From Promethearchaeota archaeon (GTDB lineage: Archaea; Asgardarchaeota; Lokiarchaeia; Sigyniarchaeales; SOKP01): a DNA stretch of 64,000 nt. The notes under the pieces are model-generated. The model searched no databases. It saw only the letters and a list, made by a program, of their open reading frames with translations, and had not been told where the DNA came from. Shown here piece after piece: positions 35,701-60,066 of this stretch (positions are counted from its first letter, which is position 1; each line of letters opens with the position of its first letter). The stretch is from assembly GCA_048940765.1 (NCBI GenBank), contig JBHLOG010000003.1:456-64455 (forward strand), in the 5' to 3' direction. Position numbers and translations under genes: made by a program.

Positions 35701-37137
35701 TTAGAAAAAATTATCAATAAATTCATTGTCTTTTATATATTTCAAATTGTTTTGTATATAAACCGTTTCTAACTCCTTTAAAGCCTCAGATTTGAATGTT
35801 TTCAAATCATTAAAAAACTTATCTTTTAATTGACTAATTTCCTTTCTAAATACTTTAATAGGATTTACTGGTTTATACCATCCATTTGTTGCCAAAATCC
35901 ATTTTCTCTTTTCTAATATATTAAGGGCATTATTGATCTCTTGTTGATCTCTTTTAATAATAGAACTCAACATAGATGGATCAGCATGTTCTAAGGAAAG
36001 GAGTGTAGCATAAACTCTTGCCTCAAGTTCGGTCGCCTTGAATAATTTCATAGATGAGATTACTTTTTCATTTACATGGACAACTTTCAATTTTTTCTTC
36101 AAGGAAATATTCTTAATTTTTGAGAGATCTATTTGATTACTCATTATAATTTTTTTAGATTTTAAAGCATCATTAAATATGTTCATACCAACATCAGAGC
36201 GAATGATAATACTATTCCATGAATTTTCAGGAGCTCCAATACTACCAATAGATATATCTGAAAATTCAGCAGTATAATCTTTACAATATTGACAACTTGA
36301 CCAACTATATTTTTTAACAGACTTTATTGGAGTGTTCTTTATACTTCCATCTTTCGAATAGATAATAAAATTACCTTGTGATATATCCAGTTTTTTCACC
36401 TCACTAATTGGCATTCCAAATTCTTTTTGAATTATATCTCTCATTGAATCATAACTATAATTTGATGTACAATAAAGTCCAATTATTAAGTTAAATTTGC
36501 TATATTCGTCTGAAATTGGAGGAAAAAATTGAAGTTTGCGTGCTGCTTGAATTTGACATGGCATACCTACAAATGCAAGTTTTTTTAGTTTGTATTTATT
36601 AACAGCATCTCTATAAGTTGATAAAGTAGGTGCCAATGCATATACAGAACCTGTTGCTTCTAATATTTCTTTTGAAGTTCTTGCTATAATGGGTTTTGGC
36701 TTCCAATTTTCATCTTTACTCGTAAGAAGAGCTCCATCAATTATTCCTTCATTAAGAGCATGAATAAGTATTGAAGTTACAGCTCCACCATTTTGTGATG
36801 CCTTTAAAATATTCTCATTAGTACTTTTAGCAAGAACAGCTTTTTTATAATGTCCAATTAAAAGATCTTTGATAGTACGCTCAGAAAAAATTTCCTTCTC
36901 AAAAAATCTTTCTGGAAAATAAGTTTTTGCACAATATTTATAACATAAAGAACATTCTGGGTCATAATCTAAAAGTGATGGCTCATCTTCATTTATTCCA
37001 ATACGAGGACAAATTGACATACAAGTTCCACATAAAACACAATTTTTTTTACTTATAACTAACTCATGTAAATCTTGGAACCCATATTCAGAGATATCAC
37101 AATGAAAATAATCCTTTATTAACTCCCTAGGTATCAT
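35701..37137 (-). CDS. Ferredoxin-FrhB (F420-binding) protein fused to a C-terminal TrmB-like winged helix
   Basis: CVLCGTC, NGGAVT, VGMPCQ, IGLYC, CQYCKDYTAEFSDISIG; tail ELEARVYATLL...INNALNILEKRKWI...YKPVNP is TrmB-like. Confidence 0.8.
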   Translation of the reverse strand: MIPRELIKDYFHCDISEYGFQDLHELVISKKNCVLCGTCMSICPRIGINEDEPSLLDYDPECSLCYKYCAKTYFPERFFEKEIFSERTIKDLLIGHYKKAVLAKSTNENILKASQNGGAVTSILIHALNEGIIDGALLTSKDENWKPKPIIARTSKEILEATGSVYALAPTLSTYRDAVNKYKLKKLAFVGMPCQIQAARKLQFFPPISDEYSKFNLIIGLYCTSNYSYDSMRDIIQKEFGMPISEVKKLDISQGNFIIYSKDGSIKNTPIKSVKKYSWSSCQYCKDYTAEFSDISIGSIGAPENSWNSIIIRSDVGMNIFNDALKSKKIIMSNQIDLSKIKNISLKKKLKVVHVNEKVISSMKLFKATELEARVYATLLSLEHADPSMLSSIIKRDQQEINNALNILEKRKWILATNGWYKPVNPIKVFRKEISQLKDKFFNDLKTFKSEALKELETVYIQNNLKYIKDNEFIDNFF

Positions 37138-37491
37138 TTTTAAATATTCACCTTTTAGAAAATTTATATTATTATAGGATTTAATGATGATTTTATCGAG
37201 AATACCATATAATATATATCAATTAAGACATATAAATGATCCATCTTGATATATCAATCTAGAAATTGTTGCATTTAACATATAAAATTATAAAAAAATA
37301 ATGATAATGAGTTTGGTATTATAGATACCATTTTCTAAAAATAAAAAAAATGATATATCTACTCGAGTTAAATAAAAAGTTGGAAAATCAAAGATAATAC
37401 CTTTGATTTTCACCAATTTAAAATAATATTATATAAGTTATTTTGTAATTTACAATTTTATCTAATTTTTAGTTTCTTAAGATAATTGTTA

Positions 37492-37752
37492 TTAATCTCC
37501 TTCTCTTTTTTTTCTATGCTTTATTTTTGCATCCAATCCCTCTTTAAGATTAGTTAATTTTGTAGAAAAATTTAAATCTATGTTCCAATTGTCTAAACGG
37601 CTACTTTCATTATTAATTTCTTGTCGATTATTAATGAGATTCGCTGGATCTAATGAAAATTGTGAGAATTCTGGATCTTCGTTATATTCGTCATCAGATT
37701 CTTTAATAAATTTTTCAGATCCAATTTTATAATCTGTATTTTCTTTTTTCAT
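37492..37752 (-). CDS. Small hydrophilic hypothetical protein
   Basis: 86 aa ORF 12 nt downstream of the previous minus-strand gene; no recognised motif. Confidence 0.45.
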   Translation of the reverse strand: MKKENTDYKIGSEKFIKESDDEYNEDPEFSQFSLDPANLINNRQEINNESSRLDNWNIDLNFSTKLTNLKEGLDAKIKHRKKREGD

Positions 37753-37764
37753 TAAAAATGGCCC

Positions 37765-39672
37765 TTATGTGTTAATTATATTCAATTCAAAATGTCTTGT
37801 ACTATTTCTTTTTATCTCTGCTAGCTTCTCTATTTTTGTTTGAAGCGGTTTCTTATCTCTGAAGCTTTTAACTTCAATTAAACCATCCTTAATGGCACCA
37901 TTAAAGATTTTTTCACCTTTCTTTGTTCTTAAAATTACAGATGACCATCCAATTTCAGATCCTATCGACCCTACTGAGATATCGGCCAATTCTGCTGTAA
38001 AATCACTACAGTAATTACAAAAATCATAACCATATAAATCACAATCCTTTAGAGGATATGAAAATATCTCACCTGATTCAAGAGTTAAAACAAATTTTCC
38101 ACTAGTTATATCCATCTTAACTATTTCATTGATATTAACACTAAATTTATCACTAAAGAGTTTAAGAATTTTCTCATAAGGAAAAGATTCTCTACAGAAA
38201 AGGCCAATTTTATATTTTATATTACTTAAAATAGGTAATTTAGCAGGGAATAATTCTCCTTTAAAAATTGCTTTAATTTTACATGGTAAGGCAACTATTG
38301 CTATATTTTTATATTTGTCAATCTTATCCAAAACTGACAACATAGGAGCATGAACATAGGTACTACCTGCTGTTTTGTATAAATCCATTAAATTTTCAAT
38401 TATACTAACTTCAGGTTTCCAAAACTTTTTTGAATGTCTAATCGTTACTACTGCATCTACTAAATTTTTGGACAATAAGTAATAAAGTAATGAAGTTACG
38501 ATACCACCATCCTGTCCAACTTTTTTTATTCCATATTTTAATGTCTTTGCAGAAGCAATATATTTATAATACCCTAGAAGATTAGAATATTTTAACGAAG
38601 TATCAGATTTTCTAATAAACTTTTGTAGATTATCAATTGAAAAAGACTGAGGACAAACACTATAACAAAGACCACAATTAATACATTCCCCTTCATCAAT
38701 ATATAAATAATTTTGTGTTAGTTCAATACAATTAATAGGACAGATGGCTGTACATAAGCCACAATGACAACAAATGCTATATTCTTGAACCGAAGAGACT
38801 GATTTGAAGTAATTCTGTTTATAATTATCTAAATTTTGTATAACTTTGTATCTATAAAAAGGTTCTTTTAATTTTAATAATTTAGTTTGATCTGTTATTT
38901 TTTTTTCCGGTATTTCTGTAAAAATTTCTTCAATATAACCTTGTTCTATTAAATAGAAAATATCTCGAATGATACTCGTTTCTGAAAAATCAAAAATGGC
39001 TAATATTTCATCTAATGTTAATGGTTCATATCTTTTCAATTCTCCAAGAATATATTTTCTTGCCGTTTCGGCATCAAAAATCGAACTAATTAAAAGATTA
39101 AGCCTATCTTCCTTGTATTTTCCTAATTCTAAAATTTTTTCTTTTGCCTTGAAAAGCGATCTATAGTGATAATTAAATGAAGCTTCATAAGTTGCATATA
39201 ACAATTTTTTTATTGGAATTGAATCGAAACTATAATTATAATCAGGTTTGATATACACTCTGTTAATTCCATTATTGATTGGATTTGGTCCAATCTGAAT
39301 TAATCTTCGAAAAAATTTCTCAAAAGCCTCACTTAATTTCTTATGGTTACTTCTATTAAAAATAAAAGTTTTTATTCTTTGATTACTTAAACCCCTTCGT
39401 TCTAAAATATGATTAGTTTCTTCTGCTGATTTAAAGAAGAAATCGAATTTGGATACTAGTTTATTTCTTTCTATCTTTCCATCAATTATTACAAATATAC
39501 CATCAAATCCTTGATAAATTGTTTTTAATAACTCTGTTATATCTAGTGAACCTAAATTTCCCATTTTAGTTATTTTAACCGAATTTACTCCTTTGAATTT
39601 TTTCATCAAAGGATAATCAGATTCGTTATATGTGTATCCTATGCTTGAGAATATCATGATTTTGTATTCCAT
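37765..39672 (-). CDS. Fusion: Cys-less MvhD-like domain, winged helix, ferredoxin, FrhB
   Basis: N-terminus KIMIFS...GFDGIFV echoes MvhD; ILGELKRYEPLTLDEI...IIRDIFYLIEQGYI is wHTH-like; CCHCGLC, CINCGLC, DGGIVT, LPCK, GLFC, CNYCSDFTAELADISVG. Confidence 0.75.
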   Translation of the reverse strand: MEYKIMIFSSIGYTYNESDYPLMKKFKGVNSVKITKMGNLGSLDITELLKTIYQGFDGIFVIIDGKIERNKLVSKFDFFFKSAEETNHILERRGLSNQRIKTFIFNRSNHKKLSEAFEKFFRRLIQIGPNPINNGINRVYIKPDYNYSFDSIPIKKLLYATYEASFNYHYRSLFKAKEKILELGKYKEDRLNLLISSIFDAETARKYILGELKRYEPLTLDEILAIFDFSETSIIRDIFYLIEQGYIEEIFTEIPEKKITDQTKLLKLKEPFYRYKVIQNLDNYKQNYFKSVSSVQEYSICCHCGLCTAICPINCIELTQNYLYIDEGECINCGLCYSVCPQSFSIDNLQKFIRKSDTSLKYSNLLGYYKYIASAKTLKYGIKKVGQDGGIVTSLLYYLLSKNLVDAVVTIRHSKKFWKPEVSIIENLMDLYKTAGSTYVHAPMLSVLDKIDKYKNIAIVALPCKIKAIFKGELFPAKLPILSNIKYKIGLFCRESFPYEKILKLFSDKFSVNINEIVKMDITSGKFVLTLESGEIFSYPLKDCDLYGYDFCNYCSDFTAELADISVGSIGSEIGWSSVILRTKKGEKIFNGAIKDGLIEVKSFRDKKPLQTKIEKLAEIKRNSTRHFELNIINT

Positions 39673-39978
39673 TATGATTACCTATTTTAGTAATAGTATT
39701 CCAATTTGATATTTTTATACATTATTTGTCATATAATTATTATGCAAATCGATCATTTATATGTTAGTATTGATAAATTGTACTATATAAAATAAGTAAT
39801 TCCACTGCTAGAAATGTTAATATAATAAAATTTAAAACAAGAAAAATTAAAAATATTAACTTAAACTAATAAGATATTGTCTTTTAAAGCTTCATTTTAT
39901 CATTTAAATATTAAGATTTAGATGATTTATTTCATAGAAAAATTAGTTTAATTTCTGAATTCCTTTAAATAAAAAAAA

Positions 39979-40245
39979 TTAGGCAGAAATATTTATTTCC
40001 CTACTAAATATTATATTTCTAGCTTTTTCAAAAGCTTCATTATAATCAAAAATTCTTTTTTCCTTTGTAATCACAACTTCTCTTAAAATTAAAGCTTCAA
40101 CTTCTGATTTAAGTCTATCAACGGTTAATGCTCCTGTTCGATTTATAGTTCGATAAATTTCTTTATTATTATCTTTAGGTTTTAATCCCTCAATTCAATA
40201 AGGAGTAATTAAATTTATGTCCATGACAATTTTATTTTTTAATTT
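39979..40245 (-). pseudogene. Remnant of the 3' end of an Mtd-family gene
   Basis: Reads KIVMDINLITPY*IEGLKPKDNNKEIY...GALTVDRLKSEVEALILRE...IFDYNEAF, colinear with the C-terminus of 62483-63469; TGA at 40195-40197 replaces Gly. Confidence 0.8.
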
Positions 40246-40323
40246 GTATATAGAACATAAATAACAAAATAATTTCTCACCAAAGAATTTTCCTATTTTC
40301 GTATTTATAATATTAATTTCAAT

Positions 40324-40410
40324 CGAACATTATTCGGTAATACATAAATTTAAAAATACAACATACGGTAATAACCATCTTTACCGAACTATCTTCGATA
40401 GATTTAAATA
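40324..40410 (+). promoter_or_regulatory. Three phased CGAA-N5-TTCG-type sites plus TATA box
   Basis: Sites start at 40324, 40355 (degenerate) and 40385; TTTAAATA at 40403-40410. Confidence 0.6.
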
Positions 40411-40540
40411 ATACTGATCATATATATCATATTAGAGAAACTATATTATTGCTAAATAATAAAAAAAAACAAAAATGAAATTTATTCAGATTGAATTAAT
40501 ATAAATTTATAAATTAAAAAATGCAATTAATAGAAACGAG

Positions 40541-41134
40541 TTGATTAATATAGTAACCTGTCCCAAATGTGGAGAAGAATACTCATTAGGTAGAAGAATT
40601 TATCATGAATGTGAAGGCTTTTCAATTGAGCATGGTGTAATTTTTAATGATGATCGACAAAATCGTCCTTGGAATTGCGTTTCTATAGATGAAACAGACA
40701 AAAAAATTTTGAATATATTACAAAAAAATGATAAGGTTTCATATCGGGAATTAGCAGATAAACTACAATTAGCAGCTAGCACAATTCATAATAGAGTAAA
40801 AAAGATGATTGAAGAGGAAATAATTAAAGAATTTGCAGCTATTGTAGATCCTGTGAAAATTGGATATAATACAATTGCACTAATAGGCCTATCAGTTGAT
40901 CCACTAAAAATGAAAGATATTGCAAGTAAGATTGCTTCCTTTGAAGAGACTCAACTTGTTGCAGTTTCATCCGGAGACCATGATATTATTGCCCAAATCA
41001 TTGCTAAGGATGAAAAATCACTTTGGAATTTCATTAATATCAAAATCAAGACAATAAATGGAATAAAGCCTCAAATTCATGTATCAAACTTTTTAGACAT
41101 ATACAAATCTACAAGTTCAATAAAAATTGCTTAG
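40541..41134 (+). CDS. Lrp/AsnC transcriptional regulator with N-terminal CPKC zinc-ribbon-like extension
   Basis: IDETDKKILNILQ...SYRELA...STIHNRVKKM, SGDHD RAM domain. Confidence 0.88.
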   Translation: MINIVTCPKCGEEYSLGRRIYHECEGFSIEHGVIFNDDRQNRPWNCVSIDETDKKILNILQKNDKVSYRELADKLQLAASTIHNRVKKMIEEEIIKEFAAIVDPVKIGYNTIALIGLSVDPLKMKDIASKIASFEETQLVAVSSGDHDIIAQIIAKDEKSLWNFINIKIKTINGIKPQIHVSNFLDIYKSTSSIKIA

Positions 41135-41184
41135 TAGTATTAAAACTAAACAATTTTCAATAATTCTTTTACTTTATTTCCTAT

Positions 41185-41640
41185 TTATTCATCTTCAAAA
41201 TGTTTTACCGTAATAAACCAAAAATTCACTATTGAATTAACAATTTTATAAAATTGCTTCATTTCTAAAGGTTTAATTATATAACAATTAGCATGGAGAT
41301 TATAAGCTCTAATTAAATCATCTCGAGCATCAGACACAGTTAAAATGACTACTGGAATTCGTTTTAATTCTTCATCTTTCTTAATTTCTTCCAATACCTG
41401 AAAACCATTTCTTTTCGGCAAGTTTAAGTCCAAGAGGATCAAGTTTGGTCTATTGACATTGGAATATTTCCCTCGCTTTTTTAAAAATTCAATGATTTCA
41501 ATACCATCTCTTACTACGTCTAAACTTTGTACAATCTTGCTCTCTTGGAGAACTTCCTGAATTAAACGAATATCTGCGGCATTATCTTCTACCAGTAAAA
41601 TTCTTGCTTTTACTCTTTTATTTCCAACCATAATTTTCAA
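41185..41640 (-). CDS. Stand-alone response regulator (Rcp1-like REC)
   Basis: ILLVEDN, ILLDLNLP, VVILT, ANCYIIKP. Confidence 0.92.
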   Translation of the reverse strand: MKIMVGNKRVKARILLVEDNAADIRLIQEVLQESKIVQSLDVVRDGIEIIEFLKKRGKYSNVNRPNLILLDLNLPKRNGFQVLEEIKKDEELKRIPVVILTVSDARDDLIRAYNLHANCYIIKPLEMKQFYKIVNSIVNFWFITVKHFEDE

Positions 41641-41643
41641 TAA

Positions 41644-42702
41644 TTAATCTCTATTTTTTTCGGCAATAATTGTAAAATAAAAAGTTGATCCTTTTCCAAA
41701 TACTGAATCTACCCAGATTTTTCCACCATACCTTTGGACTATTTTTTTACATATTGGTAATCCTATCCCTGTACCTGGATATTCTTCTTTAGTGTGCAAT
41801 CTATAAAAAATATTAAAAAGTTTATCAAAAAATTTTGATTCAATTCCTATACCATTATCTTCAAATGAGAATAACCATTCATTATTGACCTTCTTTACTC
41901 CAATATGTATTTTAGGTGGTTCTTGCCTTCGGAATTTTATAGCATTACTAATTAAATTTTGAAATAATTGGATAAATTGAGTTTTGTCAACTTTTAGTAT
42001 TGGCATTTTGTCATGAGTTATAATTGCACCGCTTTCTTTAATTGATTCGTGGAGATTAAATAACGCTTCATTTAAAATCTTCTCAAGGTTTAATAATCTT
42101 GAAGGTTGGGCGTGTGTAGTTATTCTTGAATAGGATAATAGATCTTTGATAAGAGTATTCATTTTTTTTGCCCCATCTGTAATAAAGTGAATGAATTCTT
42201 TCCCATCCTTATCTAATTTATCTTGATATCTATCTTCTAGAAGTTGAGAAAAGCTTACAATTGCTCTTAAAGGTTCTTGTAAGTCATGTGAAGCTACATA
42301 CGCAAATTGTTGTAAATCCTCATTTGAACGCTTTAAATCTTCCATTATTTCATTGAATTCAATTTCTCTTTTTGAGACATGTTCAGAGAGGAATGAAACA
42401 ATTATACCCACTATTATTAAGGAGAATGCTCTTAAAAAGTTATTAATTAACTCTAAATTAAAGATACCATTTTCAGGAATGATATTAAAAATAATTAAAA
42501 TTACTGCTAAAAAGACAGATATAAATAAACCTTTTTTTTTCCACCATAAACAAGCTAGTATTGAAGGAAAATAAAAAAAGTGTGCTACCAATATAGATAT
42601 TCTGAGGATAATCTCGAAATAATATATTAAAAATAAGGAGATTATCAACAAAATTAAGATAATTAGCATTCTTATTTTTTCATCCTTAAATTTCAAGTTC
42701 AT
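41644..42702 (-). CDS. Membrane-bound sensor histidine kinase
   Basis: About four N-terminal TM segments; ASHDLQEPLR H-box, NLISNAIK, DNGIG, GTGIGL. Confidence 0.93.
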   Translation of the reverse strand: MNLKFKDEKIRMLIILILLIISLFLIYYFEIILRISILVAHFFYFPSILACLWWKKKGLFISVFLAVILIIFNIIPENGIFNLELINNFLRAFSLIIVGIIVSFLSEHVSKREIEFNEIMEDLKRSNEDLQQFAYVASHDLQEPLRAIVSFSQLLEDRYQDKLDKDGKEFIHFITDGAKKMNTLIKDLLSYSRITTHAQPSRLLNLEKILNEALFNLHESIKESGAIITHDKMPILKVDKTQFIQLFQNLISNAIKFRRQEPPKIHIGVKKVNNEWLFSFEDNGIGIESKFFDKLFNIFYRLHTKEEYPGTGIGLPICKKIVQRYGGKIWVDSVFGKGSTFYFTIIAEKNRD

Positions 42703-43059
42703 TTCAAATAGACCTCATATTATATTAGACAACTTTTATTTGGAATTTTTAAAAAGCAATAGGAGAATATCTTAGGATAAATTCTTTTTTAATAAGAATA
42801 TTATCCAATATTAGATAAATTTTACCGAACAAAAATATGATTATTTTTATTTGATAAAATGGAGATTTCAATTCATAATATTTAAAATATATGTAATTTG
42901 CTTTTTTCCCTTAAAAATTTGACAAAAAATTTTATCTATTTGAGCAATTAATAAAATAATTATAAATATTACAATGAATATTATTCAGATTAAGTATAAA
43001 GAATTGAAAAAAGGATTTATTTGAATGTAATTATAAAAATTATTTTATGGTGAATTGAT

Positions 43060-43953
43060 ATAGAAAAAAAAAGCCTTGATATCCTATTGATTGAAGATAA
43101 TAAAGCTGATGTTCGTCTTATTGAAGAATTATTAAGAACTTCTGAAGATTTCAAATTTAAATTAGAATCAAATCCTAGACTTTTTGAAAGTCTTAATCGT
43201 CTTGTAGCTAAAAAGTTTGATATTATCTTATTAGATTTAACTCTACCTGATAGTGATAGAGAATCTACTTTAGAAAGAGTTTTAAATTTTACCAGCACAA
43301 TTCCTATAATCATTCTAACTGGATTAGATGATAAGGATTTCGCTTTAAAATCTCTTCAGAAGGGTGCTCAGGATTATATTGTAAAGGATGATCTCAATGG
43401 ACCTAGTCTAATACGAGCAATTTTATATGCCATTGAACGACAAAAAATTGAAACTGAAAGAATAGTAGATAGACTCCCCAAGATACCATTTGATGAAAAA
43501 GATAAAGAAATTCTTAACTTTCTGCAGGAAAATTATAAAATTTCTTATAAAGATTTGAGTAAACAAGTGAATTTAGCCGCTAGTACGATTCATAATAGAG
43601 TACAAAATATGATCAAAGAGGGGATTATAAAAAAATTTGATACTTTTGTAGATCCATTTAAAGTGGGATATCAATCTATGGCTATTCTTGGTCTTTCAAT
43701 AGATCCTTTGAACTTAGATAATATAGCAAGAAAACTCTCCAAATATGATGAAATACAATTAGTTGTATCTTCTACCGGTGATTATAATTTAATATTGAAA
43801 ATTATTGCTAAAGATGAAAAAAATCTTTGGAGATTTATTAATGAAGAAATTAAAACCTTAGATGGAATACAATTACCAGTGAATGTTTCAAGCTTTATAG
43901 ATATTTTTAAAATGACTAATAGAATAAAATTTAAAACTATAAAAGAAGAATAA
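43060..43953 (+). CDS. REC-Lrp/AsnC fusion response regulator; probable ATA start
   Basis: (M)EKKSLDILLIEDN, LLDLTLPD, LTG, YIVK followed by an Lrp HTH and RAM domain; GGTGA 6 nt before ATA 43060. Confidence 0.88.
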   Translation: MEKKSLDILLIEDNKADVRLIEELLRTSEDFKFKLESNPRLFESLNRLVAKKFDIILLDLTLPDSDRESTLERVLNFTSTIPIIILTGLDDKDFALKSLQKGAQDYIVKDDLNGPSLIRAILYAIERQKIETERIVDRLPKIPFDEKDKEILNFLQENYKISYKDLSKQVNLAASTIHNRVQNMIKEGIIKKFDTFVDPFKVGYQSMAILGLSIDPLNLDNIARKLSKYDEIQLVVSSTGDYNLILKIIAKDEKNLWRFINEEIKTLDGIQLPVNVSSFIDIFKMTNRIKFKTIKEE

Positions 43954-44015
43954 AATATTTGTTTTATAGTTAATTTAATAGTTATTTGAATAAATGAGAA
44001 GATATCTAGTTCAAT

Positions 44016-45533: not shown

Positions 45534-45572
45534 ATAAAACATTTTGATTTAAAAAATGAATAAGAATTAATT

Positions 45573-51477: not shown

Positions 51478-51495
51478 TGATAAATATAATTGTCA
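51478..51495. promoter_or_regulatory. 18-bp imperfect palindrome TGATAAATATAATTGTCA
   Basis: Matches the TGAYAAA-N4-WTTGTCA family; upstream of the frhB/wHTH-hdrA/hydrogenase operon. Confidence 0.5.
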
Positions 51496-51644
51496 AACTA
51501 TATAAATATGATCATTTTGTCAAAAGTAATAATCACAAAACCTAATCATGACTATCGATAAATTGCATAAAATAAAGTAAAAGGCAAGAATCATATTGGA
51601 ATCAGATCAAACCAAAGACCAAATTAATACATTTTATTTATTAA

Positions 51645-51698
51645 TGACAAATTCATTTGTCAAAATGATTATAATTATTCTTATCAGATTTTTTAAAT
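51645..51698 (+). promoter_or_regulatory. Conserved 54-bp promoter module (18-bp palindrome TGACAAATTCATTTGTCA plus TATA)
   Basis: 44/54 identical without gaps (manual count) to 60883-60936. Confidence 0.65.
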
Positions 51699-51843
51699 TT
51701 CTTCTAATTCATAATTTAATCGGGATAGAGTACAATAATATAATAACACTTACATTTATGTAAATTTTGTTTTTTTTCTCAAAACAAAATCTTGAAATAT
51801 TATTACAAAAAAATATTTGGTGATGATTGGAAGCGTGAATTAA

Positions 51844-53880
51844 ATGTCTGAAAAACAGACCATTGCTAGAATCGGAGTATATATTTGTAGATGAGGAGTT
51901 AATATAGGGGCTAGCATTGATTGTGATATTATTAGAGATTATGTTGAAGCACTCCCAAATGTCATAACTGCTAGAGTAAATGATTTTACTTGTAGTGATC
52001 CAGGCCAAAATATTATCAAAAACGATATTTTGGATTTAAATTTAAACCGAATAGTTGTCGCTGCTTGTACACCAAAAATTCATGAATCCACTTATCGAGC
52101 AGTTTTAGCTGAAGCAGGATTAAATCCATATTATTTTCAAATGGTAAATCTTCGTGAACAATGCTCGTTTACATCTTCAAGTAATAAAAGAGATACTACT
52201 AAAAAAGCTATAAGATTAGTACAAGCAGGTATCAATCGTGCTCGAGAATTAGAGATTGTTCCTCATAAAAAAATTTCAGTAGAGAAATCAGTATTAATAA
52301 TAGGTGCGGGAATTGCTGGAATGAATGCTGCATTAGATTTAGCCAATCAGGGAGTTAGAGTTTTCTTAATCGAAAAAGAGGCAACTATTGGGGGAAAAAT
52401 GGCACAATTAGATAGAATTTATCCTACAGACGATTGTGCTATATGAGTTCTGGCCCCTATAATGGTAAATGCTTCAAAACACCCAAATATAACCCTTCTT
52501 ACTTATAGTGAAATTATTGGATTTAGTGGTATTCCTGGTAAATATAATATTAAAATAAAGAAAAATCCACGTTATGTTAATGAAAAAAAGTGTACTGGAT
52601 GTGGATTATGTACCACAAAATGTCCTATAACAGTACCTAATGAATTCAATCGAGGTATTGGTGAACGTGGTGCAATCTATATACCGTTTCCTCAAGCTGT
52701 ACCTAAAATTGCGATAATTGATAAAAGTGTGTGTATAGAATGTAAAAATTGTCAAAGATTGTGTCAAGCAGAAGCAATTGATTTTGATCAGGTACCAGAA
52801 TTTATTGATATAAGCGTAGGTGCTGTAATAATTGCCACAGGATGGGATGAGTATCCAATTATGAAAAATAATGATTATAGATATGGAATTTATCCGGATG
52901 TAATTACTCAAATAGAATTAGAGCGAATGTTAAGTCCGGTTGGACCAACAGGAGGTCATGTATATAGAATTTCTGATGGAAAAATCCCAAAAACAGTAGC
53001 TATGATTCAATGTGTTGGTTCGAGATCTTTAAAAGGAAATCCTTATTGTTCAGGAGTATGCTGTAATGTTGCTCTTAAGAATGCTCAACTGTTAAAACAA
53101 GAATATCCTGATATTAATATTGCCATCTTTTATATAGATATGCGTACATGGGATAAAGGGAATGAAGAGTATTATAGAAAAGTGAGAGAAGCAGGAGTTA
53201 TGATGATTCGAGGAAAAGTTGGAGATATACGCGAAGATCCATTTACAAAAAACCTTAAAATTACAGCTTCTTCAACATTAACAAATGATATGATTACTAT
53301 GAATACAGATCTCGTTGTACTGTCAACAGGTATGGTCCCTTCTAAGAATACAATAAAATTAATTGAGACGCTAGGTTTAAGTAAAGATATTAATGGATTT
53401 TTATCTGAAGTTCATGGATGCCTAAAACCTCAAGAAACGAATAATATGGGCATTTATATTTGTGGGTGTGCTGCTGGACCAAAAAATATCCCATATTCGG
53501 TATCAACAGCATTAGCTGCAGCCAGTAAAACATCCACATTACTTTCAAAAGATGCAATCGTCCAAGAATTGATTATTGCTGAAATAAATGAAAATCTATG
53601 TATCGGCTGCCATAGATGTGAAAAACTATGTAATTATAAGGCTGTTATGGTAAATGGAGATAATATTGCAGAAATAGATGATTTGAAATGTAAAGGATGT
53701 GGTGTTTGTGTATCATCATGTCCTGCTAGAGCGATTGATCTTAAATATTATAGAGATAAACAAATTATTGAAGAGATAAAAGGCATTTGTAATACTGAAC
53801 TTGAATATAAAGAAGAATATATTGAATCTATTGAACTTGTTTGGAAAAAGATTGAAGCATTAGCTCCTTATCAAACTTAA
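51844..53880 (+). CDS. hdrA: Heterodisulfide reductase subunit A, selenoprotein with two Sec (U17, U201), 678 aa
   Basis: Single frame from ATG 51844 to TAA 53880 with TGA at 51892-51894 (IGVYICRUG) and 52444-52446 (PTDDCAIUVLAP); both positions are Cys in the neighbouring HdrA paralogues; SECIS-like hairpin follows. Confidence 0.9.
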
Positions 53881-53951
53881 TCTGAAAAGGAATGATCTTC
53901 TCAAAAAAATATTAGTTGAGAGGAGACTAACCCACCGTATGGGTTTTCAGA
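53881..53951 (+). ncRNA. SECIS element (eukaryote/Loki-type, AUGA...GA core) in the hdrA 3' UTR
   Basis: TCTGAAAA/TTTTCAGA basal helix; ATGA 53892-53895; TCTTCTCAA/TTGAGAGGA helix; A-rich loop; GA 53925-53926; side hairpin CCCA-CCGTA-TGGG. Confidence 0.85.
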
Positions 53952-54056
53952 ATAATGTAGAATAATAATTGATTTAAATTTATATCAGCAGTTCAAATTA
54001 ATTTGAAATGATTATAGGATTAGTTATTTTTTTTTGAAGTTAAAAATATTTGTTAA

Positions 54057-55211
54057 TTAAGGTTTTTTCTGCTTGGTTTTTAAAGAAATTAATTTATTAA
54101 ACCAATCTAATTTCTTATTTTTCCACTCAATCGTTTTGTTAAATGGAACAATAAATTGTTCAATTATTCCTTTTGAAAGCATATTGTTTATCACTTTCTC
54201 TCCTTTATCAGTTCTAATTAGGATCATAGAATATCCTTCTGGAGCCCCAGATGCCCCAATACTAATATCTGTAAACCTGCCTGTGAATTCATCACATTCA
54301 TGACAATTATTTCTAACTGCTGGATTTAGAGTTTTAATATCGATTTCAAATTCTTTATTATCTTTAGTTTGAATAAAGAAATTCTTTTTTATCCAAGTTT
54401 TCTTGATATTAGTAGGATCAACATTCGTTTCTTTTTCTAAAATGTCATATAATTGAGAATAAATAAAATTCTCATAACAGAAAAGACCTATAATATATTT
54501 AATAACATGAGCTGGTTTCACGAGCAAAAATTTCATTTTACTAACAGCTCTACATTGGCAAGGAGTTCCAATAAATGCAATTCTTATCTGGTCAATATCA
54601 AATATTTCTTTTTTCAAAAGAATCTCCTGAGGGATGCTGTATAAATTTTTTAAAGGAAATATTTGAGGAGAAATAGAATAACGTGTACCTGCCGATTTAA
54701 ATAAATCTTCTTTATCAAATATAATTTTTGGGACAGGTTCAAAGTTTTCGTTAAATTCTGAAACAATTGCTGCATCAATTTTATGTTTTTCAAATAAAAA
54801 TGTTAGTATTGCTGAAACAACACCTCCATCCTGTCCAACTTTTTCTAATGCTGAGTTTGTTGTTTTAGCAGCAAGAATTTTAGTAATATGCCCAATCTTA
54901 TCTTCAATACAATAAGTATCATTTAATTCATTTAATAATACATTAGTTTGAGGGCAAATATAATAACAAACACCACATTTAGTACAATTATCAACACTTT
55001 TTTCTGATTTAAACTCAGGAATGTATCCCTTCATCTCAATAACATCAAAACTTTGACTCTCGCAATATGCTATGCAAGCTCCACATGCACAACATTTATT
55101 AGTTTTAATTATTTCATTCTGAAGATCCTGAAAATTTTTTACGTTGTTTTGCTCAAGTTTCTGAAACCCTAATTCAGTCATTTTAATTCCTCTTTTTATT
55201 TCTTTTTCCAA
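54057..55211 (-). CDS. Ferredoxin-FrhB family F420-binding subunit
   Basis: CCACGAC, CTKCGVCYYICP, DGGVV, IGTPCQ, GLFC, CHECDEF...DISIG; the true start may be the second Met (MTELG). Confidence 0.88.
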   Translation of the reverse strand: MEKEIKRGIKMTELGFQKLEQNNVKNFQDLQNEIIKTNKCCACGACIAYCESQSFDVIEMKGYIPEFKSEKSVDNCTKCGVCYYICPQTNVLLNELNDTYCIEDKIGHITKILAAKTTNSALEKVGQDGGVVSAILTFLFEKHKIDAAIVSEFNENFEPVPKIIFDKEDLFKSAGTRYSISPQIFPLKNLYSIPQEILLKKEIFDIDQIRIAFIGTPCQCRAVSKMKFLLVKPAHVIKYIIGLFCYENFIYSQLYDILEKETNVDPTNIKKTWIKKNFFIQTKDNKEFEIDIKTLNPAVRNNCHECDEFTGRFTDISIGASGAPEGYSMILIRTDKGEKVINNMLSKGIIEQFIVPFNKTIEWKNKKLDWFNKLISLKTKQKKP

Positions 55212-55672
55212 TTATATTCTAATTCAAATACTCCAGATTTTTTAGAGATTTTTAATTCTCCCAATTCTATAATTGTGTCTGTAAAATCTTTAATTAATTC
55301 TGAAAATTGCTTCCCTTCACTTGCAGAGATGGAGTGTAATTGAAATCTATCGGCTTCAATTCCGATGTATTTTATTAATTTCTTTAAATGTTCCATTCTA
55401 ACTTGAGTGTATTCAAATCCCTTCATATAATGACAATCACCCATATGGCATCCAATAATTAATACACCATCTATTCCATTATTAAAAGCTCTTAAGATAA
55501 AGATAGGCTCAACCCTACTAGAGCACATAACCCTAATAATCCTAATATTTGGCGGATATTGAAACCTAGAAACACCTGCTAAATCTGCACCAGCATAACT
55601 GCACCAATTACAGCAAAAAACTAGAATATTCGGTTCAAATTCATTATTTCTTTTATTTTTAATATTTATCAA
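55196..55672 (-). CDS. mvhD: MvhD/VhuD [2Fe-2S] subunit (all-Cys form)
   Basis: FCCNWCSYAGADLAG, RVMCSSRV, GCHMGDCHY, ISASEG. Confidence 0.93.
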   Translation of the reverse strand: MINIKNKRNNEFEPNILVFCCNWCSYAGADLAGVSRFQYPPNIRIIRVMCSSRVEPIFILRAFNNGIDGVLIIGCHMGDCHYMKGFEYTQVRMEHLKKLIKYIGIEADRFQLHSISASEGKQFSELIKDFTDTIIELGELKISKKSGVFELEYNWKKK

Positions 55673-55689
55673 TAAATATCGCTCCCAAA

Positions 55690-58600
55690 TTAAATAATTT
55701 CATAATCTACTATATCTATATCAGTCAATAAATCAATCATTTTGCTAATTTGAAACTTACTAAAATGATTCTGATCAATAGCTCCGACTGAGCATTCTGC
55801 AACACAAGCTCCACAACCTTTACAAAGAGCTTTAATTATACGTGCTTTTCTTAAACTTACATCATATAAACCCATTTTTTTACGACTTTCAATCAATTCA
55901 ATCGCATTATACGGGCAAATCTCAATACATTTACCGCACCCGATACATTTTTCTTCATTTATATAAGAAGTTATACATTCAGTTTCTATTTCTCCTTTAG
56001 CCATTATTATTGCCGATCTCCCAGCAGCACCATATGCTTGAATAATACTTTCTCCAATCCATTTTGGCCAATGAGCTCCCCCACATAGAAAAATGCCATC
56101 TGTGGCAAAATCTATTGGTCTAAGTTTTGCATCAGCTTCTAAGAAAAATCCATCTTTATTTGTTGATACTTTTAACAATTTTGCTAATTTTTCAGTATCG
56201 TCAAAAGGAACGTTAGGAGTGGCTAATATTAATAAATCTGTATTATATTCAATATCTGTCTGAGCGCTTACATTTTTATATATAATATGGAAGTGATCTT
56301 TTTCATCACTGATTTTGATATCCTCAATTGATTGATACCTTTCATAAGTTGCATTTTTCCGAAGCCCTCGACATAGATTTTCAGCATTTAAATCTGTAAA
56401 TTGAAATTCTCTATATAAAATATGAATCTGCGCATTGGGATTGATATTTAATAATTTTTCAACGTTCTTTAATGCTACTCCACAACAAATATTTGAACAA
56501 TAGGTTTTCATATATTCTCCATCATTAAATCCATCTCTCCTTTGATCTACGCATAATATTATTGTAGCATCTTTAAATTTAGGAATCTCTCTATCGTTCA
56601 TTGCTGTAAATTCTGTTTGAGTAAGAACACGTTTGGGATATCTTTCAGATAAATCTTTCCACTTTATAGTTTTAATTTGCTTTGTTCCTGTAGCTACTAT
56701 TATTGTACCCACATTGATGGTTTGCTCTTTTGAATTTTCTTGAATATTTTTAACTTTAACCTCATAATTTCCAACATAACCTTGGACATCAACAATATCG
56801 GAGTTTAATAAAATATGAACATTAGATTTATTTTTTAAATCATTAATTTGTTGAAGAATTTCATTTTTCGTAATAGGTATATAGTATAAGTCAATAAATT
56901 CAAGTGCACTACCACCAAGAATCGCTCTCTTATCTATAAGATAAACTTCAAATCCTTGATTGGCTAAATTATGAGCAGCTGTAATCCCCGAGATTCCGCC
57001 ACCTATTATTAGAGATGATTGTTTAACTTTAACTTTAATGGTCTCTAATGGTTTTAAATTAATTACTTTTGCTAAATACATTCTAATTAAATCACATGCT
57101 TTTTTAGTTGCCTTTTTAGGTTCATTTTGATGGACCCAAGAATCTTGGTTTCTTATGTTTACTAGTTCAAATAAAAATGGATTTAATCCAACCTCCCTGA
57201 GAGTATTTTTAAAAAGTTGTTCATGTGTTCGAGGGGTACAAGATGCAACTATAAATCTATTAAGATTATATTTAATGATTAATTCTTTAATCAGTTCTTG
57301 TGAATCTGAACTGCATGAATACATATTTTCTTCGACGTGTACTACATAGGGCAATTTAGAAACATAATCTACAACTTCAGAAACATTAACAATCCCTCCG
57401 ATATTGATACCACACTGGCAAACTAAAATACCAACACGAGGTTCATCCTCTAACCTTACTGGTATTTCTGGGGGATATTCTACCTTTTTAATATTTTGAA
57501 ATCTGAAAGGATAAAATCTTTCACTAATTTTAGCTGCGCATGCAGAACCTTCTGCAACTGCCATTTGAATATCATTGGGTTTTTTAGAATAACCAGAAAC
57601 AAATACATTCTTTTTTTCAAGTAAGATGATATCTTCTTCACGAATATAACCTAAATCGTCACAATCTACATTTAAGTGTCTTAAAAGTTCATAGTAAGAA
57701 GGAGTTGGAGATAATGCACTTGCTAAAACGGCTATATCTACTTCAAAAGTTCCAACTTTTCCTTTATCAATATCTTCATAATATAATCTTAATTTTCCAT
57801 TATCTAAATTCTCTTTAATATATGAAACATGTCCATTTATATATTTAACATCATATTCATTCTTACTTTTTTCAATAAATTCATAAAAATTTTTACCTTT
57901 TGCTCTAATTTCCGTATTAAAAATATAGCATTCAATATTTGGATTGTGTTCCTTAACAACAATTGCTTCTTTAGCTGAATTCATACAACAAATTGCAGAA
58001 CAATATTTTTTACATTCTGGATGATGAAAATCTCGAGAACCAACGCACTGTATAAAACCAATCGATTTAGGATGTTTTTTATCGTCTAATCTTATGATTT
58101 GACCCCCAGTAGGTCCATTTGCAGAGAGTAGGCGTTCAAATTGCATGTTAGACAAAACATTGGGAGAGGAACCAGCAAAATTATTATATTTTTCTGGCAT
58201 TTCTTGGTTATTTCCTGTAGCAATAACAATTGCTCCAACATTTAACGTAATTTCTTCTGTTTTTTGTGTAAAATCTATGGCATCTGCAGTACAAACTTTA
58301 GCACAAAGGCCACATATTTTATAATTTAAATATAAACATTTCGAATCATCAATAAGATATATTGGAGGTACTGATGACGGAAAAGGAATGTAAATGGCTC
58401 CTCGAGTTTTTAAATGGGTATCAAATTCGCTAGGAATTCCCCTAACTGGACAAATATTCCCACAATCACCACATCCTTTACAAATTTCTTCTTTTATATA
58501 TCTTGGCTTTTTTATAACTGTAACTGTGTAATTCCCCGCATATCCAGTAATTTTTTTAACATACGAATATGTGAATAATTCTATATTTGGATCTCTATAC

Positions 58601-58812
58601 ACATCAACCATTTTTGGTGCAAGGATGCATAAACTACAATCTAGGGTAGGATATATTTTATCCAATTGTGCCATAGTACCTCCTATCGTTGGTTGAATTT
58701 CGACTAAATATACCCTAAAACCTAACTTAGTTAGATCTAAGGATGCCTGCATCCCTGAAATTCCTCCTCCAATAACCAAAACACTACTCTGCAAATCTGA
58801 CATATAACACAA
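55690..58812 (-). CDS. hdrA: Long two-module HdrA-like flavoprotein (Cys form)
   Basis: Two GGGISG FAD motifs, PTLDCSLC, IQCVGSR..YCSAICC, internal LVCQCGINI/ASCTPRTH, C-terminal ferredoxin. Confidence 0.9.
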   Translation of the reverse strand: MCYMSDLQSSVLVIGGGISGMQASLDLTKLGFRVYLVEIQPTIGGTMAQLDKIYPTLDCSLCILAPKMVDVYRDPNIELFTYSYVKKITGYAGNYTVTVIKKPRYIKEEICKGCGDCGNICPVRGIPSEFDTHLKTRGAIYIPFPSSVPPIYLIDDSKCLYLNYKICGLCAKVCTADAIDFTQKTEEITLNVGAIVIATGNNQEMPEKYNNFAGSSPNVLSNMQFERLLSANGPTGGQIIRLDDKKHPKSIGFIQCVGSRDFHHPECKKYCSAICCMNSAKEAIVVKEHNPNIECYIFNTEIRAKGKNFYEFIEKSKNEYDVKYINGHVSYIKENLDNGKLRLYYEDIDKGKVGTFEVDIAVLASALSPTPSYYELLRHLNVDCDDLGYIREEDIILLEKKNVFVSGYSKKPNDIQMAVAEGSACAAKISERFYPFRFQNIKKVEYPPEIPVRLEDEPRVGILVCQCGINIGGIVNVSEVVDYVSKLPYVVHVEENMYSCSSDSQELIKELIIKYNLNRFIVASCTPRTHEQLFKNTLREVGLNPFLFELVNIRNQDSWVHQNEPKKATKKACDLIRMYLAKVINLKPLETIKVKVKQSSLIIGGGISGITAAHNLANQGFEVYLIDKRAILGGSALEFIDLYYIPITKNEILQQINDLKNKSNVHILLNSDIVDVQGYVGNYEVKVKNIQENSKEQTINVGTIIVATGTKQIKTIKWKDLSERYPKRVLTQTEFTAMNDREIPKFKDATIILCVDQRRDGFNDGEYMKTYCSNICCGVALKNVEKLLNINPNAQIHILYREFQFTDLNAENLCRGLRKNATYERYQSIEDIKISDEKDHFHIIYKNVSAQTDIEYNTDLLILATPNVPFDDTEKLAKLLKVSTNKDGFFLEADAKLRPIDFATDGIFLCGGAHWPKWIGESIIQAYGAAGRSAIIMAKGEIETECITSYINEEKCIGCGKCIEICPYNAIELIESRKKMGLYDVSLRKARIIKALCKGCGACVAECSVGAIDQNHFSKFQISKMIDLLTDIDIVDYEII

Positions 58813-58860
58813 TTATTCAATAAATTTATAAATTTTATATCCCAATCTTGTTAATTTAAC

Positions 58861-60066
58861 CTAAACAAACATTAGTAATTTTCCAATAAAACTTGCTAAA
58901 TCAATCACCTTAATTTTATTTCTAGATTCATTATGCTCTTTATTTAAAGAAAGCTCATTTATGTAACAATTGAAGTGTGTTAGACATTTAGGGCAAGGAA
59001 CAATTAAATAATCTGCTCCAGTATTAAATGCTTCATTAATACGATTTTTTCTTAAAAATCGTGTAGATTCATTGCAATTTGCAAATGCTGAAACACCACA
59101 ACAATTAGCATCATCTTTATTATTTTCCATTTCAATTAATTCTACTCCTGGAATCTCGTTTATTAAGTCTCTTGGAGGATCATATAATTTTCCACCTAAA
59201 CGCCCTATTCGACAAGAATCGTGATAAGTTACCTTAATTTTAAAATTGTAAGGAAATTTAACATTTTCAAGAATTTTTTCTTTAAGAAAAAATTCAGTAA
59301 AATGTAATACTTTAAAATCAAAATCTTTTATTATTTTTGGGTAATCAAATTTCCATGTTCTATATCCTTCAGCGCATCCAATAACGATGGTTTTTACTCC
59401 AGCGTCTCTGTAAAGCTGAGTATTATAATTAGCAAGTTTTGCAAAAGTTTCAATATCACCCCTGCCCCAAAAAACATCATGTCCACAACATTTTTCATTT
59501 AAAACTACTGGTGCGATACCCTTTTCATTAAGTAAACTTATTATTGTTGTAGGTATATCAGTATAGTTGGTATCATATTTATAAAAAAGATCATCCATTA
59601 AAGGCAGGCATCCAATAAAATAAGCAGTTTCACCTGAAGCTGAAGTTTTTAATCCTTTCTTTTTTAGAAAATCTAATTTGTTTGGGTGTAAGGGATTGTT
59701 TGCCATAATTTTCGAAATTAAGGTAAAGATATCATTATGAGTTTCGCATTTTATAATTTTTTCTATTTCAGATTTATTTTTACTATATGCTTTTCTTAAC
59801 TCTAAGATTAATTCAGGTATATTAACACCCTTATTTTCTTGAGTCATAGGACAATAAATTGAACATTGTCCACAAGTGAGACAATTCCAAATATTATTAT
59901 TAGTTATGACTTGTTCTAGTTTTGAGAATATCAAATCTGAAATTAAATTTCTTGGAAAAAAAAGTCCTAGATGAGATAATGGGCATACATTGACACAGCG
60001 ATTACAACTATAACAATAATTAACAAAATTGCCAATATCTTTACATGATAAATCTGAAATTAACAA
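58861..60066 (-). CDS. HdrD-like protein (HdrC-type 2x4Fe-4S plus CCG domains)
   Basis: CYSCNRCVNVCP, CLTCGQCSIYCP, CCG, YHDSC, CCG, PCPKC. Confidence 0.88.
   Translation of the reverse strand: MLISDLSCKDIGNFVNYCYSCNRCVNVCPLSHLGLFFPRNLISDLIFSKLEQVITNNNIWNCLTCGQCSIYCPMTQENKGVNIPELILELRKAYSKNKSEIEKIIKCETHNDIFTLISKIMANNPLHPNKLDFLKKKGLKTSASGETAYFIGCLPLMDDLFYKYDTNYTDIPTTIISLLNEKGIAPVVLNEKCCGHDVFWGRGDIETFAKLANYNTQLYRDAGVKTIVIGCAEGYRTWKFDYPKIIKDFDFKVLHFTEFFLKEKILENVKFPYNFKIKVTYHDSCRIGRLGGKLYDPPRDLINEIPGVELIEMENNKDDANCCGVSAFANCNESTRFLRKNRINEAFNTGADYLIVPCPKCLTHFNCYINELSLNKEHNESRNKIKVIDLASFIGKLLMFV

Follow-up and report, generated by a model that had tools for sequence, protein, structure and literature searches.

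A winged-helix HdrA as a candidate regulator of its own hydrogenase genes in a Lokiarchaeial redox island

Introduction

Hydrogen-handling and electron-bifurcating enzymes are central to models of Asgard syntrophy and hence to models of eukaryote origin, yet to our knowledge almost nothing is known about the control of their genes. A stretch of 64,000 nucleotides (nt) from Promethearchaeota archaeon (contig JBHLOG010000003.1, positions 456 to 64,455), here called the window, raises the question whether such enzymes can act as their own regulators. Within 25 kb, it combines genes for heterodisulfide reductase (Hdr), Mvh-type hydrogenase and FrhB proteins, and three of the encoded proteins carry a winged helix-turn-helix (wHTH) domain (Table 1). 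The window has a G+C content of about 28% and belongs to a host genome of 4.04 Mb that is 95% complete.

The initial annotation, made from the letters alone, had read this island as a metabolic complex lying next to a regulatory copy of itself. Its gene counts are borne out: there are four FrhB genes (FrhB_C scores of 128–139 bits, Pfam), three HdrA genes, of which one encodes two selenocysteines, and three fusions to a winged helix, one of them recognizable by fold only. Separate hdrB and hdrC genes are indeed missing, as HdrD is the sole protein with CCG domains (the HdrB type) that Pfam finds among the window open reading frames (ORFs) scanned. An ElpA/FdhA-like gene was not seen either. 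Two genes that the initial annotation did not list, mvhG and mvhA, lie downstream of the gene for the fusion wHTH-HdrA-MvhD. The genes hdrD, double hdrA, mvhD and frhB form one operon (54057-60066, minus strand). With about 20 HdrA loci, 17 FrhB_C matches and two MvhA-like genes genome-wide, the FrhB and HdrA counts of the window are part of a genome-wide expansion. The arrangement of the island is not due to chance, since its gene order repeats in related loci.

The proposed regulatory copy is partly supported, because the three fusions differ from one another. One, wHTH-HdrA-MvhD, is a strong candidate for a self-regulating enzyme; a second, of 635 residues, is probably structural; the third, FrhB-TrmB, may be a regulator. 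Taken together, these features would describe a Lokiarchaeial cluster linked to H2, F420 and ferredoxin, with a self-regulating wHTH-HdrA-MvhD, a structural winged helix in the 635-residue protein and FrhB-TrmB as a candidate regulator, a combined reading for which we consider the case evenly balanced. Sensing of H2, F420 or flavin state by the fusions, which had also been claimed, we can only infer.

A winged-helix HdrA in a conserved hydrogenase module

The central protein of the island is the 849-residue wHTH-HdrA-MvhD. Its distribution was determined in a sample of 201 Asgard genomes, in which the family of the host genome has 41 members (40 without the host itself). The fused protein is present in 46 of the 201 genomes and in five families: 30 of 41 genomes in its own family, and 3/6, 4/5, 3/43 and 6/19 in families f19, f16, f7 and f12, respectively. 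The fusions are thus not sporadic; FrhB-TrmB, for its part, was found in 20 of the 201 genomes. Residues 1-240 of the protein yield 319 protein matches at E ≤ 1e-3; the best 120 of these are 67–95% identical, about 849 residues long and nearly all annotated with PF24038 in precomputed form. The close matches are named as Lokiarchaeota or Promethearchaeota metagenome-assembled genomes (MAGs). Outside Asgard, a Bathyarchaeial locus on a metagenome contig (L084:4001-8443) encodes the same triad of wHTH-HdrA-MvhD, small subunit and large subunit.

The gene overlaps mvhG by 11 nt, and mvhG followed by mvhA lies downstream of it in every one of the 76 loci that has enough DNA. The upstream side is more variable: frhB directly precedes wHTH-HdrA in 24 of the 72 loci containing the start of that gene, and the combination of an upstream frhB with a divergent Sec-hdrA is confined to the closest loci. 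The large subunit carries both [NiFe] nickel motifs, RxCGxC (RICGLC near the N-terminus) and DPCxxCxxH (DPCISCATH as the last residues, read in the translation), and has the adjacent small subunit; by motifs and Pfam the enzyme is Mvh-type and group 3c-like. Conversely, the fusion was not found in 11 of the 40 other family genomes, and the five near-complete ones that were checked all also lack a matching MvhA. The overlap with mvhG, the constant presence of mvhG and mvhA, the retained cofactors described below and the joint loss with the hydrogenase indicate that wHTH-HdrA-MvhD is a subunit of a hydrogenase module rather than a spare sensor paralog. This is where the proposed regulatory copy is not supported as worded, while the conservation of the fusion and a palindrome on its own promoter speak in its favour.

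The N-terminal domain of the fusion scores 44.9 bits against DUF7347 (PF24038; cut-off 27.6), and the Pfam clan members HTH_5 and HTH_20 co-match its relatives. An AlphaFold2 (AF2) model shows the order a1-a2-b-a3-a4-bb-a5, the element order expected for ArsR, with a predicted local distance difference test (pLDDT) score above 90 over residues 10-75. Among Foldseek matches, ranks 1-50 are all transcription factors of the ArsR/SmtB, HxlR or MarR type, including DNA-bound NolR. A profile of the first 120 residues, searched against 1.8 billion representatives, gave 1468 matches. Most of them are short proteins resembling ArsR; a few share the architecture of the fusion at about 800 residues or more, including one cluster from Bathyarchaeia. 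The domain is basic (mean net charge +5.2). Among 31 orthologs, the recognition helix TTGQLNFHLKK is nearly invariant and the winged helix is as conserved as the enzyme part; the Bathyarchaeial protein has ETGKFNYHLSK at this position. A complex prediction with two copies of residues 1-97 scored 0.34 against a mark of 0.42 and was used neither way.

DUF7347 has four matches in the whole genome. A second enzyme-like carrier is a 661-residue protein (contig C75:11220-13229; locus L083:1248-3233), which combines the domain (39.4 bits) with a partial NRDD (anaerobic ribonucleotide reductase) and, by eye, an ATP-cone-like stretch.

A palindromic site in the promoter of the module

In 19 sequences (the window and 18 loci), the frhB/Sec-hdrA intergenic region has a conserved length of 440 bp and two conserved blocks, both of which contain the palindrome TGAYAA-N6-TTRTCA. 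On the minus strand, the TATA box (51499-51508) of the frhB/wHTH-hdrA operon precedes the proximal site by 3 nt. The distal site belongs to a 59-nt module of which nhmmer finds just two copies in 4.04 Mb; the proximal promoter block (block B) is unique in the genome. The second module precedes hdrD by 820 nt and, on the other side, a plus-strand gene starting at 61069 by 169 nt.

Operator counts for the related loci refer to the 67 with a usable upstream region of 350 nt and, unless called perfect, to sites with at most one mismatch. At least one site is found upstream in 63 of the 67 related loci, and a perfect one in 50. In total, there are 110 upstream sites, i.e., about 1.6 per 350 nt compared to 0.028 per 350 nt elsewhere in the same loci. 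The association extends to distant families, in which the N-terminal 120 residues are only 35–58% identical and the upstream DNA, with up to 42% G+C, cannot otherwise be aligned: 11 of 16 such loci have the site, against a mean of 0.17 in 300 shuffles (f19 3/3, f7 2/2, f12 6/6, f16 0/5). In five near-complete family genomes without the fusion, on the other hand, 18 sites versus 16 for a control pattern mean that there is no excess.

Within the host genome, nine perfect sites occur (other spacings: 3-10). Four are on this contig, three of them in promoters of the island and the fourth at contig position 77, just outside the window and inside a partial ORF. The other five look like chance occurrences: three fall within ORFs, one at the start of a topoisomerase gene and one upstream of a DUF4386 gene near ferredoxin genes. 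The site upstream of hdrD is present in 9 of 21 genomes with the fusion and in none of eight without it (one-sided Fisher test 0.029, uncorrected for kinship). The operon at 61069-63469 (plus strand), a possible member of the same regulon, comprises genes for two proteins without a Pfam match and ends in a gene resembling that for methylene-tetrahydromethanopterin dehydrogenase (Mpt_N).

Which protein reads the palindrome? FrhB-TrmB was considered as its sole reader and rejected, as the site is present in at least ten genomes in which FrhB-TrmB was not found. Self-regulation is the most economical reading, since the wHTH of HdrA is the one DNA-binding domain that always travels with the site. 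In the proposed mechanism, the 849-residue protein would serve as the flavin and iron-sulfur subunit of a three-gene Mvh-type [NiFe] module (wHTH-HdrA-MvhD, MvhG, MvhA), and its ArsR-type winged helix would most likely bind the 18-bp palindrome immediately behind the TATA box of the operon that encodes it. Protein sitting at the proximal site would block the initiation of transcription. In this genus, the palindrome also lies in the 59-nt module, near Sec-hdrA and upstream of the hdrD-hdrA-mvhD-frhB operon, which would place partner genes under the same control. The enzyme would thereby repress or tune its own and its partner genes, as a 'trigger enzyme' in the manner of PutA, and the signal would probably be the redox or assembly state of the complex. 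While architectures, conservation and operator distribution are observed, DNA binding, the direction of regulation and the signal are what we infer. A hydrogenase subunit with its own repressor-type domain and a short, defined operator would be a directly testable circuit, with a domain of 97 residues and a site of 18 bp, in organisms that are hard to grow.

A more far-reaching version holds that the whole MvhA/MvhG/wHTH-HdrA-MvhD complex is the transcription factor, H2 or ferredoxin redox moving the N-terminal arm of HdrA, which bears the wHTH, on and off a private operator. We regard this version as tentative and somewhat unlikely. If true, it would amount to a one-complex H2/redox switch that needs no kinase or separate regulator, is kept across several Asgard families and Bathyarchaeia, and controls Hdr/F420 modules of syntrophic hydrogen metabolism.

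Several observations weigh against self-regulation. The Foldseek matches of the wHTH have E-values of 2.5e-3 to 2e-2, none at or below 1e-3, with template modelling (TM) scores of 0.6-0.78 on the target. The 20-residue linker behind the wHTH is also conserved, which would equally fit a domain packed into the complex. In solved Mvh-Hdr complexes the two N-termini of HdrA are far apart, which would make a compact ArsR-type dimer on one 18-bp site awkward. Four of the 67 related loci have no site. Family f16 carries the fusion and yet shows the site in none of five loci (up to one mismatch), and the one Bathyarchaeial locus has none at up to two mismatches. No interpretable co-variation between recognition helix and operator was found across families: f7 and f12 change Q41 and keep the site, and f16 changes Q41 and has no site. 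Both 59-nt modules lie nearer to a plus-strand gene than to the minus-strand operon, so that their direction is ambiguous, and the hdrD-upstream site is mostly confined to this genus. Locus counts overstate independence because related loci are kin, and kinship also inflates the hdrD comparison. The operator data would be explained just as well by any conserved factor encoded elsewhere. One alternative candidate for regulating the island is a block of a receiver (REC)-Lrp fusion and two-component genes, which occurs, whole or in part and with or without glutamate dehydrogenase, in the flanks of the hydrogenase operon in 9 of 76 loci, mostly downstream of mvhA.

The 635-residue fusion and a proposed structural role for winged helices

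The 635-residue protein cautions against taking every winged helix for a regulator. Its N-terminal MvhD-like domain matches Pfam FlpD weakly (33.5 bits, 4.6e-8) and has none to two cysteines in 14 full-length homologs, so that the cluster cysteines are not conserved. The middle domain stays below Pfam cut-offs (HTH_DeoR 17.2 bits, cut-off 21) and resembles ArsR weakly in sequence. An AF2 model of the complete protein is poor (mean pLDDT 51.6), and the MvhD-like domain could not be modelled; only residues about 200-250, with a pLDDT of 63-84, and parts of FrhB were used. The middle domain has many winged-helix structure matches (Z 7.2-8.4), and those of the FrhB domain include FrhB (Z 19.8) and a chain of Elp-Hdr (Z 19.1).

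In charge, this winged helix is the opposite of that of HdrA (mean net charge -7.3). The same helical and winged-helix module heads other FrhB paralogs of the host genome, one of them fused to a GltD-like oxidoreductase, and in 33 of the 40 family genomes it heads an FrhB of about 500 residues, whose gene usually directly follows a separate MvhD gene that contains two TGA codons. The complete fusion of 620-635 residues is rare: it occurs in 2 of 201 genomes and, apart from the window protein itself, as 13 full-length cluster representatives. Being acidic and a standard part of several FrhB paralogs, this winged helix is probably a structural module of MvhD-associated FrhB subunits that resemble ElpB/FdhB. 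The initial annotation had named a structural role as the outcome that would contradict its reading; it is for this fusion alone that such a role emerges.

A related protein of 929 residues (contig C63:6601-9387; locus L086) joins the acidic winged helix, ferredoxin and FrhB to GltD/NfnB-like Fer4_20 and Pyr_redox_2 domains, and could link F420 to NAD(P)H. Upstream of the 635-residue gene, a small conserved frame (FDYNEAFEKARNIIFS; 39970-40195, minus strand) has similar counterparts in loci L008 and L035; the ORF listed there has 31 residues.

The strongest alternative generalizes the structural role to all three winged helices, which would act in docking within Hdr/Mvh/Frh supercomplexes while a separate factor encoded elsewhere reads the palindrome. 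Winged helices do often serve protein contacts, and the fold matches of the 635-residue protein include the winged helices of RPA32, ESCRT-II and cullin; the conserved linker after the HdrA wHTH and the family-wide presence of the acidic module on FrhB paralogs fit as well. Stand-alone regulators (Lrp/AsnC, REC-Lrp and a histidine kinase) are at hand in the island, with synteny, and in Methanosarcina a separate wHTH regulator, HdrR, is described with a palindromic site at hdrBCA in the part of that report consulted (PMC11218639). For the HdrA fusion, several observations weigh against this. Its wHTH is basic, its nearest profile relatives are small ArsR-like proteins and its nearest structures are DNA-binding repressors. 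Moreover, the operator accompanies the fused gene even in families between which no other part of the upstream DNA can be aligned, and it shows no excess in genomes without the fusion. We consider a structural role for all three winged helices unlikely.

Cofactors of the fused HdrA

Most cofactor sites of wHTH-HdrA-MvhD are intact. Compared with solved structures, the 849-residue protein matches HdrA at E 1e-90 to 1e-108 (best 7.5e-108) and MvhD at about 1e-24. Among 31 orthologs, the GxGxxG motif for flavin adenine dinucleotide (FAD; G247-G252), C104, C106, C139, C164, C343-C403 and C655-C694 are invariant, as are the cysteines C730, C733, C759, C784 and C789 of the MvhD domain. By sequence, the full wire from the hydrogenase via MvhD and FAD to the ferredoxin domains is retained. 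A different picture is seen for the C...C..CC motif of the FAD domain, which Sec-HdrA, each half of the double HdrA and the HdrA of 8RVU retain, but which is replaced by E...H/Y..IL in the 849-residue protein. By elimination, the lost motif is the one that binds cluster HA4, which in Elp-Hdr is the path of the high-potential electron toward the heterodisulfide site and HdrBC, according to the part of that study consulted (PMC12350162). In the window and the 76 loci, the wHTH-HdrA operon has no gene with a CCG domain, and HdrD is encoded in a separate operon. Since the motif is lost and hdrB/C are absent from the operon, the known route of bifurcation to HdrBC is closed to the module. Behind the database label 'heterodisulfide reductase / hydrogenase iron-sulfur subunit' thus stands an enzyme that is unable to work like the methanogen complex. 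The module may act chiefly as a ferredoxin-linked hydrogenase, as a sensor or in both roles.

The loss of one iron-sulfur cluster motif (HA4 by elimination) would also suit a second alternative, in which the fused proteins are a dedicated, non-metabolic sensor copy and wHTH-HdrA-MvhD/MvhG/MvhA is an H2-sensing regulatory hydrogenase. The same can be said of the operon without hdrB/C, of an MvhA that terminates exactly at its DPCxxCxxH motif, and of a module that is dispensable, as it was not found in the 11 family genomes mentioned above. A pure sensor would, however, have no need for a complete wire from H2 to ferredoxin, with FAD, the N-terminal, inserted and C-terminal ferredoxin clusters and the MvhD cysteines all invariant. 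In addition, frhB is co-transcribed in this genus, the 635-residue winged-helix fusion is unlikely to bind DNA, and the module may be a main hydrogenase, as just one other MvhA-like gene exists in the genome, 29% identical to that of the window. We consider a dedicated sensor copy improbable. Lastly, binding of RNA or another nucleic acid form by the HdrA wHTH, e.g., its own leader instead of a double-stranded operator, could be suggested by the long operon leaders and by winged helices that bind RNA or Z-DNA (SelB and Z-alpha are among the fold matches of the 635-residue winged helix), but it is highly improbable given that the conserved element is a DNA-type palindrome adjoining TATA boxes and that the structural neighbours of this wHTH are ArsR-type DNA binders.

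FrhB-TrmB

The remaining fusion ends in a TrmB wHTH (PF01978) that, scanned alone, scores 31.9 bits (cut-off 25.6); among the 15 cluster representatives of FrhB-TrmB, five, including that of the window, have PF01978 as a precomputed match. In the alignment of the 15 proteins the iron-sulfur cysteines are invariant. The protein has no TrmB sugar-binding domain, as it ends 56 residues after the wHTH, and the remainder is FrhB. Of the 19 other genomes with FrhB-TrmB, 17 also carry the wHTH-HdrA module, often on the same contig. This architecture makes FrhB-TrmB a candidate for a one-component regulator, with an F420/FAD-binding FrhB in place of the TrmB sugar sensor, and it may be a sensor of F420 or flavin state. 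With cofD, cofH and cofE above cut-off in the genome, a linkage to F420 is plausible and sensing of F420 possible.

An operator of FrhB-TrmB could not be established, as the upstream candidates are semi-conserved in alignments of five sequences each. One is the perfect palindrome TTGATATATCAA in the 37200-37270 region, semi-conserved across five sequences. Another is the block GATCATTTATAT (TATA with flanking GATC), which lies upstream of both the FrhB-TrmB and the 635-residue genes (37200-37270 and 39740-39760) in opposite orientations and is likewise semi-conserved.

Sec-HdrA and neighbouring genes

Sec-hdrA, divergent from the frhB/wHTH-hdrA operon, has its two TGA codons at positions where paralogs have cysteine, and related loci repeat the split of the gene at the second of these codons. 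Sec-HdrA has been described as an Asgard selenoprotein, and the core features of the hairpin in its 3' untranslated region (UTR) match those given for Asgard eSECIS-like elements in the part of the report consulted (PMC11227280). The fold of this hairpin, which resembles a selenocysteine insertion sequence (SECIS), is not significant versus shuffles (z -1.1). The same portion of that report has hdrA and frhD always adjacent in Asgard MAGs (PMC11227280); no mvhD/frhD gene follows the Sec-hdrA of the window.

The two halves of the island are separated by genes for an Lrp/AsnC regulator, a receiver protein, a histidine kinase, a REC-Lrp fusion and glutamate dehydrogenase. The REC-Lrp/AsnC fusion (43087-43953, plus strand; with 41185-42702, minus, and 40541-41134, plus) stands beside the histidine kinase, the lone receiver and the second Lrp/AsnC gene. 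Directly upstream of hdrD, a small zinc-ribbon-like ORF of about 55 residues with CPxC...CxxC (60075-60240, minus) was noticed by eye, as was a hydrophobic ORF of about 30 residues (about 60590-60680, minus) within the 800-nt hdrD leader. The island is flanked by a region (22656-35528) that encodes FeoB, a DtxR-type repressor, NifU, an Mrp/NBP35-type ATPase, three NifX-like (Nitro_FeMo-Co) proteins, two CbiA-ferredoxin ATPases, DUF134 and DUF5320. Further away, a Ras/Arf-family small GTPase (9417-10025, plus) is followed by a 748-residue tetratricopeptide repeat (TPR) protein, which is typical for Asgard genomes.

Table 1. Features of the redox island (positions in the window; aa, amino acid residues)
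Feature	Position	Strand	Description
FrhB-TrmB fusion, 478 aa	35701-37137	minus	2x[4Fe-4S], FrhB_N/C, TrmB wHTH (aa 369-422), long C-terminal helix; Pfam
635-aa fusion	37765-39672	minus	Cysteine-less MvhD-like domain (aa 5-128), helical segment and acidic winged helix (aa ~145-262), 2x[4Fe-4S], FrhB
mvhA, MvhA-like [NiFe] large subunit, 434 aa	45573-46877	minus	Pfam NiFeSe_Hases
mvhG, MvhG-like hydrogenase small subunit, 252 aa	46882-47640	minus	Pfam Oxidored_q6
wHTH-HdrA-MvhD, 849 aa	47630-50179	minus	DUF7347 wHTH, HdrA, 2x[4Fe-4S], MvhD
wHTH of the 849-aa protein (aa 1-80)	49940-50179	minus	Alignments, AF2 model
frhB, 384 aa	50249-51403	minus	First gene of the operon in this genus; Pfam
Proximal operator (predicted)	51478-51495		TGATAAATATAATTGTCA; 75-92 nt upstream of the frhB start codon
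59-nt module with distal operator (predicted)	51643-51701		TGACAAATTCATTTGTCA at 51645-51662, TATA-like TTTAAA box; between frhB and Sec-hdrA
Sec-HdrA, 678 aa	51844-53880	plus	In-frame TGA at 51892-51894 and 52444-52446
SECIS-like hairpin, 3' UTR of Sec-hdrA	53889-53930	plus	AUGA, stem, A-rich loop, GA
FrhB, 384 aa	54057-55211	minus	Final gene of the hdrD operon; Pfam
MvhD with cysteines, 158 aa	55196-55672	minus	Pfam FlpD 181.6 bits
Tandem double HdrA, 1040 aa	55690-58812	minus	Both halves keep the C...C..CC motif
HdrD-like protein, 401 aa	58861-60066	minus	2x[4Fe-4S] and two CCG domains; Pfam
Second copy of the 59-nt module with operator (predicted)	60883-60937		TGATAAATTTTATTGTCA at 60883-60900; nhmmer E 2.9e-5

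Comparison with known systems

HdrA-MvhD and HdrA-HdrA fusions have been published for Loki- and Thorarchaeota, in a text in which the word 'helix' does not occur in the portion consulted (PMC11237513). In the literature searched, neither a DNA-binding domain on HdrA nor this operator was found described, with the proviso that the supplements of that paper (Table S2, Fig. S5) might list the composite, and no mention of DUF7347 was found.

Compared to the MvhAGD-HdrABC, Fdh-Hdr and Elp-Hdr complexes (PDB: 5ODC, 7BKB, 8RVU), HdrD replaces HdrB/C in one operon of the island. The module at the centre of this study departs further from the methanogen Hdr complexes, in that HdrA and MvhD are fused, an ArsR-type wHTH is added at the N-terminus and the C...C..CC motif is absent. 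FrhB-MvhD beside HdrA mirrors the docking of ElpB/ElpC on HdrA for F420H2-driven bifurcation, as given in the part of the Elp-Hdr study consulted (PMC12350162), and the 635-residue fusion resembles ElpC plus ElpB of this F420H2-dependent complex with an extra docking domain. Regulation of hdr genes by a winged helix has a precedent in HdrR of Methanosarcina barkeri, an activator of hdrBCA with a palindromic promoter motif in the portion of the source seen (PMC11218639); HdrR is a separate protein, whereas here the winged helix belongs to HdrA itself.

With ArsR/SmtB proteins (NolR 4OMY, CadC 1U2W, HlyU, Rv0081), the HdrA wHTH shares the fold and the helix order including the C-terminal a5, as well as a palindromic candidate operator. 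It differs from these repressors in having no metal-site cysteines and in being fused to an enzyme of 770 residues, and its dimer is only putative. FrhB-TrmB, in turn, has a TrmB wHTH followed by a long helix in common with TrmB and TrmBL1, but its wHTH is C-terminal to an FrhB flavo-iron-sulfur domain and the sugar sensor is absent.

Enzymes with their own DNA-binding domain are known as trigger enzymes, such as PutA, BirA and NadR. Like these, wHTH-HdrA-MvhD combines a redox or cofactor enzyme with a DNA-binding domain and has a candidate operator on its own promoter. Unlike PutA, BirA and NadR, the carrier is a subunit of a multi-subunit [NiFe] hydrogenase and flavoprotein, the domain is of the ArsR type and DNA binding is predicted. 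The regulatory hydrogenases HoxBC/HupUV, which belong to another hydrogenase group, signal via the HoxJ kinase and a separate response regulator, HoxA. The module described here would be like them a [NiFe] hydrogenase that may report H2, but unlike them it would have the DNA-binding domain sitting on the complex itself.

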